From Methanobacteriota archaeon (GTDB lineage: Archaea > Halobacteriota > Bog-38 > Methanoflorentales > Methanoflorentaceae): DNA of 64,000 nucleotides. Location: NCBI GenBank assembly GCA_963720465.1, contig OY970393.1, positions 192,001-256,000 on the forward strand. Direction: 5' to 3'. Made by a program: the position numbers and the translations under genes. This document shows positions 945 through 58,583 of this stretch, in pieces (position 1 is the first letter of the stretch; every line of letters begins with the position of its first letter). A model generated the notes under the pieces. That model ran no database searches and was not told where the DNA came from. It was given only the letters and a program-made list of their open reading frames with translations.

Positions 945-1785
945 GCTTGTTGACGTCGATATCGTCGATCGGCACGTGCGCGAGGGGCTCCGCGTTTAAG
1001 GAGCGGTACTCCTCGTCGAACGTGGGTTTGTCGGCCTCGTACAGCACCCCGATAGGAAGCTTGTCCCCGACTTCCTGCGCTTTTTTGAGGGCGAGCTCGT
1101 AATTGGAGCGATCGTACTCCGTTTCGTCAAGCGTGTACACGTGGTCGTTCCACCACTTCCAGGTGTTGACGTGGTTGAATGTGACGCACGGCTGTCCGAT
1201 GTCGACGAGCGAGAATCCCTTGTGCCGGATCGCTTTAGTCATAAGGTCGCTGAGGTGCTTGTTCTCGCCGCTGAAGCCGCGTCCGACAAAGGTCGCTCCG
1301 GCGAGCAGCGCGAGGGGCAGCGGCGTGACGGGCGAAGCAACGACGCCTTCCGGGGCCACTTTCCACTTCGTGCCCTTGAAGCTTGTTGGCGAGGGCTGGC
1401 CGGTCGTGAGGCCGTAGACCTGGTTATCGTGCACAAAAACCGTGATGTCGATGTTTCGTCGCGCGGCGTGCAAAAGATGGCCGAGTCCCTCACCATACGT
1501 GTCGCCGTCTCCCGCGTGCACGATGACCGTAAGGTCGCCGTTTGCGAGTTTGATGCCCTGCGCCACGGGGATCGACCTCCCGTGTAGGCTGTGGAGCACG
1601 TATGTGTTGATCCAGTAGCTGAGGTTTCCAGAGCACCCGATGCCGCACACGATCGCCGTCGTATGGGGGGCGAGGTCCATGCTCGCGTAAGCGGCTTTCA
1701 TCGCGTTCCAAATCCCGAAGTTGCCGCACCCCGGACACCACGTGGGCCAGGTGTCAGGCACGTCATAGCGATGCACGTCTCCCAT
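925..1785 (-). CDS. 2-oxoacid:ferredoxin oxidoreductase beta subunit (TPP-binding)
   Basis: WCPGCG, GIGCSG, LHGR, GDGD...DNQVYGLTTGQ.SPT, QPCVTFN; start placed at ATG 1785, directly after the alpha-subunit stop. Confidence 0.92.
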   Translation of the reverse strand: MGDVHRYDVPDTWPTWCPGCGNFGIWNAMKAAYASMDLAPHTTAIVCGIGCSGNLSYWINTYVLHSLHGRSIPVAQGIKLANGDLTVIVHAGDGDTYGEGLGHLLHAARRNIDITVFVHDNQVYGLTTGQPSPTSFKGTKWKVAPEGVVASPVTPLPLALLAGATFVGRGFSGENKHLSDLMTKAIRHKGFSLVDIGQPCVTFNHVNTWKWWNDHVYTLDETEYDRSNYELALKKAQEVGDKLPIGVLYEADKPTFDEEYRSLNAEPLAHVPIDDIDVNKLMARHL

Positions 1786-31093: not shown

Positions 31094-31675
31094 TTAATCC
31101 TGCGGTTTGGATGTGCGCGTGTGGCCAAGATATTTTTTTAGAAGCTCGAATGCTTCAAGCTCGCGCCTTCCACCGCACTTTCTAACGATGCCCTCGCAGT
31201 GAGTCATTCGCTCGAGGTAAGCTGGGTCTTCAAGGGTCTGATAACGTGTTGCGTGAATCGTTGCTTCAAGCACAGCGCAAAATGCTCTGTTCACAGGTAT
31301 TATCGGTCTCTGCAGGACGACAGATCTCACAGGCTTAAGCTCTACTATGGCGCTTTTTTGAGTCGGTTTTTCCAAAATCGAACATGCAAATTCTACCCAT
31401 GCGTACGCTGCCTTTAGGACTGGCGCTTTCTCATCGGGGAAAAAAAAATCGAGGTCGAGATCCTCAAAGGCGGTTTTTACGTAAAGCAACGGATCCGCAA
31501 CAAAGTTGGCAACTAGCTGACGATTTTTCTTAACGTTCAAAAAGGTGTGGCTGTCTTTGTAAACGACAATGTAGAGGGAGCCGCGATTTATGACGCCCAT
31601 AGGTGCGGCGTTGGGCTGGCCATTGCGCGTCGTTGCTATGACTTCTGAGATGCCTTCGTAAAATTGCACATCCAT
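31094..31675 (-). CDS. DUF447 family protein
   Basis: EGISEVIATT, PNAAPMG, SHT..N, NRA..AVLEA.IHATR, KCGG. Confidence 0.85.
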   Translation of the reverse strand: MDVQFYEGISEVIATTRNGQPNAAPMGVINRGSLYIVVYKDSHTFLNVKKNRQLVANFVADPLLYVKTAFEDLDLDFFFPDEKAPVLKAAYAWVEFACSILEKPTQKSAIVELKPVRSVVLQRPIIPVNRAFCAVLEATIHATRYQTLEDPAYLERMTHCEGIVRKCGGRRELEAFELLKKYLGHTRTSKPQD

Positions 31676-32523
31676 CAGTACCGGAAGCCTCCTAAGAGCA
31701 CGACAAATAATGATCCAATCACGAGATCGGCTGTCGTTCCGGGGTTGACGTGCCGCGCGACGAGCTCGTTGTCGAACTCATCAGCGTCGCCCTCTTTCAG
31801 TATGTGGGCTGCTTTTGCCGAAACTTCAAGGGCTAAATCAGTGCTGAATTTTTTCGCTATGAGTGTATCGGGGAACTCACTGAGGAGTCGAAGAAATAAG
31901 TGCACAATTGAATTCTTAACACTGAGTCCCGATTCAACATAGTGTGTCACCAACTCGGCGCCGTAAAAAGTGCGGGGAAACCCTTCAATCCACTCCTTTG
32001 CTATGGTGTCGTTTGGGCTCGATATTTGCATGACATCCCACAGCGTCAAATTTTGTTGCTTAATTGCTTGCAATGAGGACGCGTCATTCACGTCAAGATA
32101 ATGATGTTCCCCGACGCGGACGTGCACGCTCCGAAAAGATTCATAGAACTGGATCGCGTCCGCGCTCGAAGTGCCCTTGACAACGCGGACCAAGTTAGTC
32201 TTGAGTTGAGATATTGTGCTGCTTTTCCGTGCCGCAGCACATAAAGGGATCAGCAGCAGGATCGCGCCAAAGTGGCAGTTCCCAGCGCTCTGCCAAGTGG
32301 CACTCGCTTGAACCGCATCGAGAATCAGACCGCCTATCCGATGCTGCGCTGACGCTGCTTTTTTGAAGACAGGAAAAATGCCAACCGCAGATGCAAGAAA
32401 ATGTTCGTAAGTTACATCTTCAAAGTCGTGCGTTCGGTCTACATTGCCCGGCTTTGGTGTCGCGGACACTTCGAGCAACATTGCTAGCTCGGCACAACCT
32501 GCTATGAAATCTGGGTCGTACAT
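31675..32523 (-). CDS. Triphosphoribosyl-dephospho-CoA synthase-like (CitG family)
   Basis: LEVSA.PKPGNVDR.HDF, N.HFG..LL..PL, PDTLI..K, NPGTTADL; start ATG 32523. Confidence 0.88.
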   Translation of the reverse strand: MYDPDFIAGCAELAMLLEVSATPKPGNVDRTHDFEDVTYEHFLASAVGIFPVFKKAASAQHRIGGLILDAVQASATWQSAGNCHFGAILLLIPLCAAARKSSTISQLKTNLVRVVKGTSSADAIQFYESFRSVHVRVGEHHYLDVNDASSLQAIKQQNLTLWDVMQISSPNDTIAKEWIEGFPRTFYGAELVTHYVESGLSVKNSIVHLFLRLLSEFPDTLIAKKFSTDLALEVSAKAAHILKEGDADEFDNELVARHVNPGTTADLVIGSLFVVLLGGFRY

Positions 32524-32533
32524 GTTGAAGAGC

Positions 32534-33640
32534 TCAGTCAAGGTCTCGACAGCTGAGAAATTTCTCTGCAAGTTGCTTTTTGAGTTGCATGTACTCAACG
32601 TCGGAAATGCCTAGGTCTTGTAGAGAGCCGTCTCTCCAAGGGCAAGGCCTGGTAATTTTGCAGCACCATACCATGCTCCCGAAGCACGTATCTGGTCCCG
32701 CCCCTAGCTTTGTGTTGTTGAAGCTCTCTTTGATTTGGACGTACTCTTCTTGGGAGATGCCCGCCCGTTTCAGAACATAGCGCAATGGACACTCCTTTAC
32801 GGGCATGCAACAGTACGCTAACCCCCGCAAGTCCCCTCCAGCGCAAATGTGTTTTGGGGCATTGTACCAACCAACAGCTTCTTGAAATGACTGAACTTCA
32901 GTCAGGATTTCTTCAACAGCGGTGTTGTCGGCTACAGCGGCACGGGCGACTGAGACGTAATCCGCTCCCATCGAGAACATTTTGTGGGCGCTGCTATAGT
33001 CCACGATCGAATTGTTTGCGATGATTTTGAGCGCCGTAACATCCCTAATTTTCTTAATCAACGCCGGCCCGGAATCCATCGTGTCGATATGAATCGCGTC
33101 AGCGCCAGCCTTGTCCATAGCCTTTGCGAGCTCTATGTCTCCAACAACGCCTGCGCGTACCTTCACCGACAGGGGCACGTCTGTTTGTTTGATCTCCCGT
33201 ATCCATTCGCTGAGCGTGTTGAGATCGTACGTGAGACACTGGCCCGCGCCAACAGCTTGCATTTCAGGCTGCCTGCAGTGGGCATTTAATTCGAGAATTG
33301 CCCCTTTTTTATGAATCAACTCCGCGATTGCGATCAGGGGCTCCAGCGTAGTTGACCGAGCATTGATTCCGGCTTTTATGTCGATCGTGTTCATGACTCC
33401 GAGCTCATTTTCGATAACAGGTGTCGGTTCGTCGTAAGCAAATTCACTTCGCCCCTTTTTGACGAGCTCTTTTGCCGCTTCGATGGTTGGCGCGTCAAGG
33501 TTGTATCCACCGAGAATTGCTAGTCCAACGCTCCGCGAGGTAGCAAACGAGCTGTTAGTTAGTCCAGCCATGGAAGCGAGAACTAATGGATTGGGGATCC
33601 GGATATCGCCTATCGTCAGTTGAAAGACTTCTTGAGCCAC
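32534..33640 (-). CDS. Dus-like TIM-barrel (MJ0144 family) fused to a methanogenesis marker 9 Cys-rich domain
   Basis: LASMAG, ELNAHCRQPEM...G.G, SVKVRA, IANNS; C-terminal WYNAPKHIC.GGDLRGLAYCC.P.K.CP...TCFGS.VWCCK...PC..RD; GTG 33640 after GAGGT. Confidence 0.85.
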   Translation of the reverse strand: MAQEVFQLTIGDIRIPNPLVLASMAGLTNSSFATSRSVGLAILGGYNLDAPTIEAAKELVKKGRSEFAYDEPTPVIENELGVMNTIDIKAGINARSTTLEPLIAIAELIHKKGAILELNAHCRQPEMQAVGAGQCLTYDLNTLSEWIREIKQTDVPLSVKVRAGVVGDIELAKAMDKAGADAIHIDTMDSGPALIKKIRDVTALKIIANNSIVDYSSAHKMFSMGADYVSVARAAVADNTAVEEILTEVQSFQEAVGWYNAPKHICAGGDLRGLAYCCMPVKECPLRYVLKRAGISQEEYVQIKESFNNTKLGAGPDTCFGSMVWCCKITRPCPWRDGSLQDLGISDVEYMQLKKQLAEKFLSCRDLD

Positions 33641-40539: not shown

Positions 40540-40667
40540 TTGAACGCCGCATTCCATTTTTTTTTCCTGCCGAGGGCAGATCGTTTTGCGAGCCAATTCT
40601 GAACAGCAAAGATATAAAGTTATGATCAGACATATACGGAGTTTAGACGGTTACAAGGGAGTGGAGC

Positions 40668-41414
40668 ATGTTTAAAGCTGATATTCTCGGAGAGACTTTG
40701 AAGGAAGGCATCGAAGCGTTGACTATCATTGTTGATGAAGCGCGGGTACATTTAAGCAAAGATGGCCTGTACGCGAGAAATGCAGACCCATCGTACGTGG
40801 CTATGGTGCAGTTTGAATTGTCGGTTAAAGCTTTTGAAAACTATGAAACTGACGATGAGGTTGTCACACTTGATCTCAAGAAAATGCAGGACATTCTTGA
40901 GCTGGCTAATCGTACAGATGTCATCCGAATGGCCGTTGACGAGAACCGAATGGCCTTGTCATTTGGAGATCTTAAATACAGTATCGCACTCTTAAGTCCC
41001 TACTCGATAAAGAAGGAGCCCAAAGTGCCAAAGATTGAATCTGCTGCACACATCGTTATCACGGGAAAAGAGTTTAGGTGGGCGGTGAAAGCAGCAGGCA
41101 AAGTTAGTGACAATATCGCCCTTGGGTGCACTGACACTGACTTTTTCATGGAAGCTCTTGGTGACTCTGATACTATGCGTCTCGAGCTGTCAAAAGATCA
41201 GCTTATCGACGTATCGCGCACCGATGGCAAAACAGATGAAGTAAGATCACTTTTTAGTCTTGAATTCTTGCTTGAAATGTCCAAAGCAGTCGGAAAGGCT
41301 TCTGAAGTCTCTCTCGACATGGGCAAGAACATACCACTCAAGGTTGCATTTGAGTTTGCCGACGGCAACGGTTCTGTCTCGTATCTCTTGGCGCCGCGTA
41401 TCGAACAAGAATAA
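40668..41414 (+). CDS. pcn: DNA sliding clamp PCNA
   Basis: MFKA, DPS.VAMV, SLFSLEFL, YLLAPRIE. Confidence 0.95.
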   Translation: MFKADILGETLKEGIEALTIIVDEARVHLSKDGLYARNADPSYVAMVQFELSVKAFENYETDDEVVTLDLKKMQDILELANRTDVIRMAVDENRMALSFGDLKYSIALLSPYSIKKEPKVPKIESAAHIVITGKEFRWAVKAAGKVSDNIALGCTDTDFFMEALGDSDTMRLELSKDQLIDVSRTDGKTDEVRSLFSLEFLLEMSKAVGKASEVSLDMGKNIPLKVAFEFADGNGSVSYLLAPRIEQE

Positions 41415-41451
41415 AACTCAAACGCCGTCGCACTGGGCCGACGCGAGAAGC

Positions 41452-42454
41452 ATGGACGAATATTTAGCTCTTTTTCCATATACGGCTGCAGCAGCACGTT
41501 ACGTAGAAGCATCCGCAAGGACCTTTGACTCTCTCATGACCGCTGGGGAGTTCTCTGAGAGCGTCCTCAACAAAAGCGTTCACCGAGTCGCACGAGCGAT
41601 CGATAGCGACGTCCATTCAAAGCCAGTCGAGCGTGACGATTGTGAAATTGAGCTCTTCTCTTACGTCATGGGGAGGGTATTAGTCTCGTGCATTCGTGAA
41701 GCGGTTCTGGTTCAGAAATATGCAAACACGGAAGCCCACGGCGCATTTAGCAAGTTGCGCAACGCCAGCGAACGACTTCAGGACGAGTACATTGCAAGGC
41801 TGCTGGAGGACTTTGAGATACCCGTATCGGAAGACAACAATATTTTCGAGTTGCATTTCGCGGACTTGATCAAGTATACGGGTAGATTAAGAGGGCCACA
41901 GTGGCGCCTCGTTAACCTATTGAACAGAGGCCACGTAACTCTTGCAAAAAATGAGATGATCCAGGTTTTGGCCGAGGCCGTGAGGCTCAAGGTGCTACGC
42001 GGGCTGCCACTAAAACTGAGCAGCAAAATGTGCGAAGAACTTGCGCCTTACACCTCACCCTTGAAAAAAGCGGTCTCTGTAGCCTCATCGCGCCCTGCTG
42101 ATTCTGGTCCTGTGATTTTGGAAGCGTGCCCTCCGTGCATGAAAGCGCTGCTTTCGCAAGTAAAAGCTGGACAGAACCTCTCACATCCCGGTCGATTCGC
42201 GTTGACCTCCTTTTTAGCGAACATAGGTATGAAAGCCGAGGAGATCGTGCGTATCTATGAAACATCTCCAGATTTCGACTACGAACTTACGCGTTATCAG
42301 GTCGATCACATAAAGGGAGCGTCGGGGAAAGACTACGTCCCTCCCGGATGTTCAACGATGGAGACCTACGGCAATTGTACCTGAGACCACAGGCCTGTGT
42401 AAACGTATCTCTCATCCGCTCTCGTATTACCGAGCGCGACTTAAGCATCAGTAA
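41452..42454 (+). CDS. priL: DNA primase large subunit PriL, interrupted by a +1 frameshift at 42379-42385
   Basis: ALFPY, WRLVN...G.V, PPC, NLSH.GRFALTSFL..IG, PDFD...TRYQV.HI.G, Y.PP.C.TM.TYGNC, then TGA at 42382-42384; conserved LCKRISHPLSYY continues in the +1 frame to TAA 42454. Confidence 0.9.
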
Positions 42455-42563
42455 GACAGCCGATGACCCTAGAACCAAGAAGAGCAATGAACTGTGGCCG
42501 TTTATGAGTTACTGAAAAAGAGGTGGCCGTACCTGGCAACGCCTCGCGGTCAGGTGCAAGCGC

Positions 42564-43715
42564 GTGAATCCGGAAACGAAAGCATTCCTCCAGAGAAAAT
42601 TTGGCGATTACTATCGTAAGGCTTCAGTTGGGCTCCCACCGCAGTTCAAGAAACGAGAATGGGCATTTGTTCTTTTTGACTCAAGTTATCCGAAGCTTGT
42701 AATGCGACGCCACAAAGCTTTTAGCTCGAATAAAGAAGTGCGCACATATTTGGGCGCAGTCGCACCGGCTCATGTGTACCATTCAACCGCGTGCTATGCG
42801 TATCCCAGCGCAACACGCATGCAAGACAAGAAGTGGGAAGGCGCAGACATAATCTTCGATCTCGATGCGGATAAGCTCTTGACGAAGTCTGTGCCTTCGT
42901 ATGCGGGCATGCTTCAAGAGGTAAAAGAGGAAACCACTAAACTGCTGGATTTCCTGATGAATGATTTCGGCTTGGACGAGAAGGACTTCAGTATCGTGTT
43001 TTCGGGTGGTCGTGGTTACCACGTCCATTTACGGGAAAATAAACTAGCTGCCCTAGGCAGTCACGAACGGCGAGAGGTTGTGAACTATTTGACAGGAACG
43101 GGCCTTGAGGCAGAGTATCTACTGAAACGCTCAAGCAAAACTGCAATGCCCGGGGACACCAGCTGTTGGGAGATTAGAATAAGGGCGTGGATTGACGAGT
43201 ATTTCAAGCGGATACGCGGACTTGATGCAAAAATTGCGATAAATGAGCTTGCACCCGTCAAGGCTATCGGCAAGCGGCGCGCCAAAGAAATTGTCGACGC
43301 GCTGTCGCAAGACGCATCGATCCAACCTTTGGTAGAGTCAAAGCTAATTTCGCTAAACGCATGGAAAAGCTTAATCAGAGAAGCTATCTCGCATTTAAAG
43401 GTCCGCATCGATGTGCCGGTTACCGCGGACATAAAGAGACTGATTCGGCTGCCCACGTCGTTGCACGGCGGCTCTGGCCTTCAGGTCACGCCTTTGACTC
43501 TCGATGGCTTCCGTCGCTTTTCACCGCTCAATGACGCTGTCGTCTTCGGTGACAATTCGGTTTCGGTCAGGATTCTCACGCCGGCTACGACTGAAATTAT
43601 GGGTGAAACTATTAAGGTTGATCAAAGTACAACAGAGCTACCAGAACACACGGCCGTTTATCTCATGGCGCGAGGACTTGCCGAATATGAATCTCGACGA
43701 CTTGAAAGTGATTAG
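42564..43715 (+). CDS. priS: DNA primase small (catalytic) subunit PriS
   Basis: REWAF, M.RH..F, FDLDAD, FSGGRGYH, ID.PVT.DIKRLIRLP.SLHG. Confidence 0.95.
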   Translation: MNPETKAFLQRKFGDYYRKASVGLPPQFKKREWAFVLFDSSYPKLVMRRHKAFSSNKEVRTYLGAVAPAHVYHSTACYAYPSATRMQDKKWEGADIIFDLDADKLLTKSVPSYAGMLQEVKEETTKLLDFLMNDFGLDEKDFSIVFSGGRGYHVHLRENKLAALGSHERREVVNYLTGTGLEAEYLLKRSSKTAMPGDTSCWEIRIRAWIDEYFKRIRGLDAKIAINELAPVKAIGKRRAKEIVDALSQDASIQPLVESKLISLNAWKSLIREAISHLKVRIDVPVTADIKRLIRLPTSLHGGSGLQVTPLTLDGFRRFSPLNDAVVFGDNSVSVRILTPATTEIMGETIKVDQSTTELPEHTAVYLMARGLAEYESRRLESD

Positions 43716-44445
43716 AAACGAGGAACGCCGCTCGCGACGATTGACGCAATTAAAGAATAGCTTCTATTCAGAGTTCAAAGAATACATGGATTCACTCAAG
43801 ACAAGCGATGATCCGCAAAGAAAAGATGAACTTGAGAATGCTCTGCAAGTCGCAGACGCAATTTATGATAAACGCGCCGCGAAAATAATCAAGTTGGCGG
43901 CGCTTGCGGCAAAAGGGCACACGGAAGACGTATCGCTAGCTGACGCCGAAGCTGAAGTCTACGATTCGGTTTACAAGGTATTCACGTATTACCGGGACCG
44001 CGTACTCGGACAAATGGAATTAGACGTCGCCGCTCCGGCAAGCGAGCCAGTGCTATCAAATGAAAACCGTCGGACCACTGTTGCACTGCCGAAACAGGAA
44101 TCTGATCGCGTTGAGCTTGACGCTACGAGCTTCGAACAGCCTCTGAAGAAAGGACCGGCACTTCAGTCCTTAATTGAGTCCAATGAAGAAGATGAGGACA
44201 GTGCAGACGAAAGCGAGGGGCTGCTCAGCGACGAAAGCACTTTAATACGAGAACGCGGGAATATGAGATACCTCCGAGTGCGAGTGTTGGCTGACATTCC
44301 CACATTCATAGGACTGGACGGCGAAAACTACAAGCTCGGAGAAGGCGACTCGGTTATGTTGCCTGAAGGGAATGCTCGGGCATTGTGCGATCGCCGTATG
44401 GGTATCATAGTCGGTGATAAACTTGAAGATGCCAAAGAAGATTAG
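43687..44445 (+). CDS. GINS complex subunit (Gins15/Gins51-like)
   Basis: MNLDDL..IR.EER, IYDKR..KIIKLA, C-terminal B-domain [23 protein letters not shown]; follows priS. Confidence 0.8.
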
Positions 44446-44704
44446 GTCAATATGCCCGGTGTGTCGAAAGCACACAACTCACGAAGTTGAGAAGGTGCGA
44501 AAAGGGCGCGCATCATCTTTAACGTGGATCTCGCGTCAAAAAAAGCGGCGCAGCGGCATTGGTAATCTCGGCAAGTTTTCCAAGGTTCCGGGCGGAGACA
44601 AACCAACCAAGCGCATCAACGTTCGCTACCGCTGTACCGAATGTAACAAAGCGCACACAAGGAAAGGATTCAGAGTATCGAAGTTCGAGTTAGTGGAGGT
44701 GTGA
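44423..44704 (+). CDS. rpl44e: 50S ribosomal protein L44e
   Basis: MKMPKK...[19 protein letters not shown]...KPTK, RCTEC.KAH; TTG start after GGTGA. Confidence 0.95.
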
Positions 44705-58431: not shown

Positions 58432-58583
58432 ATAGGGACTGATAAGTATTTTTTAGTATATCAATATGCAACGCCCCAGAGAAGCTGTTCAAAACAAGGA
58501 GAAGTAGTTTCATATAGAATTGTTGCCATAAAAAGAACGTAGTTGCGTTATATCGTATTGCGACGAAGTGGAGGAGCCTAAAG

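Follow-up and report, generated by a model that had tools for sequence, protein, structure and literature searches.

Programmed +1 frameshifts at a sense codon followed by UGA and a further base (codon-UGA-N) occur in bacterial prfB and in eukaryotic antizyme. In Archaea, only one programmed frameshift is given as demonstrated in the consulted sections of a 2021 review of recoding (PMC8211752), namely that of fucA1. The fucA1 gene of Saccharolobus solfataricus is read with a -1 shift at the heptamer A-AAA-AAT; according to the sections consulted, in vitro translation confirmed this shift, and the full-length protein was detected in vivo (PMC8211752; PMC1616953). The word 'primase' was absent from the text of the review as it was available to us (PMC8211752). 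Since the fucA1 -1 shift is the sole demonstrated archaeal case in these sections, a +1 site in an archaeal priL gene would, if true, be new for Archaea; the evidence presented here says that such a site is absent at this locus. Consensus errors linked to short sequence motifs are established for nanopore assemblies, for example at the Dcm motif CCWGG, as described in the consulted part of Wick et al. 2019 (PMC6591954).

In this study, we analyzed a stretch of 64,000 nucleotides (the window) from the 2.31-Mb single-contig genome G000, in which priL is interrupted by an in-frame TGA. A sequence-only reading had proposed in its title that priL needs a +1 frameshift at ACC-UGA-G to encode its fourth Fe-S cysteine, and had named a one-base insertion error as the simpler explanation. 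The insertion error was borne out by our results, and the programmed recoding was not. We conclude, with a probability of about 93%, that priL is an ordinary uninterrupted gene of 333 codons and that the deposited assembly contains one spurious C. The observed break is thus an artefact of the assembly and no biological feature.

The window contains a replication gene cluster in which PCNA, priL and priS were identified by Pfam matches (Table 1). Frame 0 of priL ends in ...VPPGCSTMETYGNCT followed by TGA (YGNCT-TGA). When T42382 is skipped, the translation continues as ETTGLCKRISHPLSYYRARLKHQ to a TAA, and the gene ends at 42454. The frame-0 stop, the +1 continuation and the position of the palindrome had all been described correctly from the letters. 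The joined PriL protein, P0004 (333 residues), is the translation obtained with TGAG read as E at the shift, and it contains Cys309-x6-Cys316, the C-x6-C spacing that had been noted before. The word ACCT also occurs in frame at priL codons 24 and 155. Only one priL was found in the genome, and PriL is regarded as essential. An ORF at 43504-44445 (+), immediately downstream of priS and overlapping its end, gave no hit in Pfam at E<=0.001; from its place in the replication cluster, it is a candidate replication factor.

Table 1. Features of the priL locus, in positions of the window
Feature	Position	Strand	Remark
priL as deposited	41452..42384	+	Frame 0, 310 codons, then TGA at 42382-42384
Probable true 3' end of priL	42383..42454	+	23 codons and TAA, in the +1 frame
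CC where reads have a single C	42380..42381	+	One base of the pair very probably spurious
GTAC tetranucleotide	42377..42380	.	Directly 5' of the presumed spurious C
Palindrome CACAGGCCTGTG	42388..42399	.	Coding sequence for T-G-L-C
PCNA gene	40668..41414	+	Upstream neighbour of priL; Pfam PCNA_N, PCNA_C
priS, primase small subunit	42564..43715	+	Downstream neighbour of priL; Pfam PF01896, 79.2 bits

We compared the truncated and the joined forms of the protein with profiles of PriL. The Pfam profile PF04104 gave 103.6 bits for the truncated form and 107.8 bits for the joined form (cut-off 22.4). With the NCBIfam PriL profile NF002588, the score was 293.9 bits for the truncated protein versus 327.1 bits for the joined protein, and the end of the match moved from profile position 312 to position 333 of 360 when the tail was included. 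The match of the joined protein to NF002588 covered residues 3-331 (E=1.6e-97), with a score below the equivalog cut-off of 439. This PriL is from a lineage outside those used to build the NF002588 model and is no exact equivalog match. As judged from these matches, the +1 tail is genuine PriL sequence, in agreement with the earlier assignment of the gene to PriL and of its last conserved Cys to the tail.

The joined protein has Cys residues at positions 226 and 229 (CPPC), 300, 309, and 316. Cys300, Cys309, and Cys316 were kept in all 28 loci of relatives with an alignment over this region. Sequence matches to p58C in the PDB covered residues 224-301 only and stopped short of the last two Cys residues. 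The truncated product of 310 residues would lose Cys316. After removal of the spurious base, the protein matched the canonical archaeal PriL over its full length (PF04104, PF26466, NF002588), with the C-terminal Cys pattern and the HPLSYY end also present. As in canonical cases, the gene is flanked by PCNA and by its partner priS, which is directly downstream in the genome, and we found no difference of substance from canonical archaeal PriL. Recoding of the TGA itself, as Sec, Trp or a similar residue, with translation going on in frame 0, can be regarded as a negligible alternative. The in-frame TGA is all that speaks for such read-through; frame 0 past the TGA encodes only DHRPV before the next stop (5 codons), without similarity to PriL, and the conserved tail sits in the +1 frame.

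We next turn to the short-read contigs. Public runs were searched for words of positions 40600-44500. Four freshwater-sediment runs from one study contained 98-99% of the sampled words and were flagged as possible sources of the genome, and peat and wetland runs from other studies contained 30-57%. Two of the possible sources, X1 and X2, and two peat runs from two other studies, X5 and X6, were aligned to positions 41400-43000 in the form of Logan contigs, which drop rare variants. One letter was absent at 42380 at depths of 13.7/13.7 in X1 (1 contig), 22.2/22.2 in X2 (1 contig), 75.9/75.9 in X5, and 67.9/67.9 in X6 (2 contigs). The single-C form was thus present in every covering contig of all four runs. 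The bridging contigs of X1 and X2 (712 and 1356 letters) showed no other difference from the window over 712 and 1044 aligned bases, respectively. This identity indicates that they come from the same strain and not from a relative, and this genome may derive from X1 and X2. Loose ends of the X1 and X2 contigs carry what we take to be a transposase-type adapter, which suggests short-read libraries.

When one C is removed, the sequence becomes TGT ACT GAG ACC (C-T-E-T), and the resulting unbroken frame encodes exactly P0004. The contigs of the four runs, all without one C at 42380, therefore support the insertion error of ACT to ACCT, and the site proposed for programmed +1 recoding, ACC-UGA-G, is missing from the contigs of 4/4 runs. 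In this explanation, the spurious C in the CC at 42380-81 gives rise to the in-frame TGA and puts the final 23 codons out of frame by +1. The DNA of the organism reads TGT ACT GAG ACC, which makes recoding unneeded.

The extra C could instead have arisen by true mutation, in a strain or subpopulation that dominated the assembly data, yielding either a 310-residue PriL without Cys316 or a fresh pseudogene. The deposited assembly does carry the base, the 310-residue product is recorded in NCBI and ENA, and the contigs may hide a minority variant with the extra C. Against this, the base is absent from all contigs of X1 and X2, which show no other difference from the window. The interrupted gene would also be the sole priL in the genome, its tail is fully conserved and undamaged, and the 310-residue form appears in no other assembly or metagenome protein among those listed. 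We therefore consider a real mutation highly unlikely. A narrower version places the extra C in a small but true part of the cells, or in those molecules that the assembler used, with survival through a +1 shift or through a tolerated PriL with three Cys residues; this is less probable still.

The relatives of the window's genome gave the same picture at this site. A priL match was found in 15 of the 17 other genomes of the genus, and in all 15 the frame is open and continuous across the site; the two genomes that gave no match have a completeness of 64% and 60%. In the DNA alignment, each of the 15 loci has a gap at the column of the extra C, and none of them (0/15) carries the recoding site. 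The closest relative (96% protein identity) reads TGCA-CTGAG (TGC-ACT-GAG), compared with TGTACCTGAG in the window. The form ACTGAG, which had been named beforehand as the observation that would speak against recoding, was therefore found both in the reads and in a sister genome. Seven of the 14 remaining genomes of the genus have ACG-GAG at the site. Outside the genus, 0/22 matched genomes were broken there. The tail shares 88-100% identity with the PriL tails of the same genus and has no further damage. Sources label the relatives as Halobacteriota, and the runs holding priL are from peat, wetland, and freshwater sediment.

Among the close database homologues that were fetched, 8/9 have an intact tail. 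The ninth, P0103, lies on a 156-kb contig and loses its frame elsewhere, after ...RLVNL; with it, the lineage has a second long contig in which priL is broken. The 310-residue product belongs to a 142-member cluster at 90% identity. Ten of the 15 members listed have 333 residues and four are shorter fragments; among these 15, a length of 310 residues was found only for the window's protein. The truncated PriL of 310 residues in the public record is almost certainly not a product of the organism.

It had also been noted that a palindrome follows the stop codon, and we examined this element as a candidate stimulator of frameshifting. The sequence CACAGGCCTGTG is a perfect 12-nt palindrome. There was no excess of such palindromes in the window, which contains 16 perfect 12-nt palindromes compared with 15.6 expected and a mean of 15.5 (range 9-21) in 20 shuffles. 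As a hairpin, it reaches only -2.3 kcal/mol, and it is not kept in most genomes of the same genus. The palindrome was rejected as a stimulator on account of its chance frequency and weak hairpin.

A programmed +1 shift at ACC-UGA-G would produce the full-length PriL, and termination at the same place would produce a form without the fourth Cys. The geometry of the site does resemble the codon-UGA-N sites of prfB and antizyme, and the sequence in the +1 frame is authentic PriL. The resemblance is superficial, being limited to a layout of sense codon, in-frame UGA, and +1 continuation. In contrast to sites of the prfB and antizyme type, the site here is missing from the reads and unconserved in 15/15 sister genomes, and its downstream palindrome is no stimulator above chance. 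Moreover, by the rules of codon pairing, a Thr tRNA that re-paired from ACC to CCU would be expected to mismatch. The fucA1 gene is likewise an archaeal gene annotated as two overlapping ORFs, but it uses a -1 shift, whereas the layout here is +1 and is gone in the reads. Within the consulted sections of the review (PMC8211752), that -1 shift is also the only archaeal precedent. Taken together, we regard a programmed shift at this site as very improbable.

Returning to the spurious C, the base stands next to a GTAC tetranucleotide, and we investigated the relationship between GTAC and one-base indels. The whole of G000 was compared with 1.27 of the 2.12 Mb of its single-contig relative G011. 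The 780-kb alignment contained 346 isolated one-base indels, and for all of these together the proximity to GTAC was enriched only about 2-fold. Fifty of the 346 fall well within a long ORF that is intact in one genome and broken in the other (33 broken in G000 and 17 in G011). In 10/50 of these ORF-breaking indels, GTAC was found within 2 nt in the broken genome, versus 2.2% in the background (p=1.2e-7), a figure from a comparison of two assemblies that does not itself tell which assembly errs at a given site. GTAC ranked first of the 256 4-mers at ORF-breaking indels and was followed by words overlapping it. Indels outside ORFs were near GTAC in 5/290 cases, which is the background level (p=0.79). 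The clustering of ORF-breaking indels at GTAC points to motif-linked consensus errors.

Split ORFs were counted in both directions. In G000, 35/759 ORFs of G011 were split, and in G011, 34/786 ORFs of G000 were split, although many of these counts are start-region artefacts of the method. As the counts are symmetric, they do not mark G000 as the poorer of the two assemblies. GTAC is also under-represented, with 6141 occurrences compared with 9016 expected from base composition, which hints that the lineage modifies GTAC sites. These observations are consistent with an error of consensus or polishing, linked to the neighbouring GTAC, as the origin of the spurious C in priL; GTAC would perhaps be a modified site that is poorly read by a long-read basecaller. 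A GTAC-linked cause is not needed for the conclusion that the break is an artefact. The nanopore errors in the consulted part of Wick et al. 2019 (PMC6591954) are likewise consensus errors clustered at one short palindromic motif, which is CCWGG there and GTAC here; it is we who infer a link between the two.

A second case was found elsewhere in the genome. A conserved gene of 415 codons at G000:C1:2010821-2012066, which by its motifs is presumably the large subunit of a [NiFe]-hydrogenase, is split in two frames only in G000. The split occurs at CGGGTAC (G000:C1:2011889). The gene is in a single frame in 13/18 genomes of the genus that were searched, and four others have a contig break, contig-end fragments or a paralogue. 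This split probably arose from the same class of error as that in priL.

The main import of these results is for quality control of the public genome record. Claims of frameshifts, pseudogenes or recoding, in this genome or in similar single-contig genomes from metagenomes, call for a short-read check first. Breaks that adjoin GTAC are suspect. Besides priL, G000 has at least one more conserved gene with such a break beside GTAC (G000:C1:2011889), and other broken genes in G000 are to be distrusted.

A separate frame break in priL was seen in two genomes of a neighbouring genus. G018 (one contig) and G023 (four contigs) are sister species whose priL genes are 96.6% identical, and both have an extra T in GCC-TTT-T-CTT at about priL codon 262 (L030, about 1501-1512, minus strand; the same place in L028). 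The extra T splits PriL between the CPPC pair and the last three Cys residues. The resulting product of 276 residues is recorded only from the G018 and G023 assemblies. Within that genus, three further genomes have an uninterrupted priL frame, as does a fourth as far as residue 298, where its contig ends. P0068, the closest other recorded protein (95% identical over 262 residues), has the normal frame. Downstream of the shift, only 5-6 differences are available for a substitution pattern. The extra T may again be an artefact, or else a mutation that was inherited; if the base is real, this would be a +1 site passed on by descent, with a perfect UUU-U slip. These two genomes are the sole remaining thread for real recoding in priL.

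The window was also compared with the syntenic 66 kb of G011 for other frame breaks. Within the 64 kb, the break in priL was the only one found to be specific to the window. Two further candidates for window errors were rejected. The indel at 58530 is intergenic and lies upstream of a gene start. The break at 31683 is the normal state of two genes, which are separate in 16/17 matching genomes of the genus. These two genes, at 31094-32598 (-), overlap by one base at 31675. G011 alone (L033:11146-12651) fuses them into a 501-codon ORF through an extra C after GTACC, and this fusion is possibly an error in G011.
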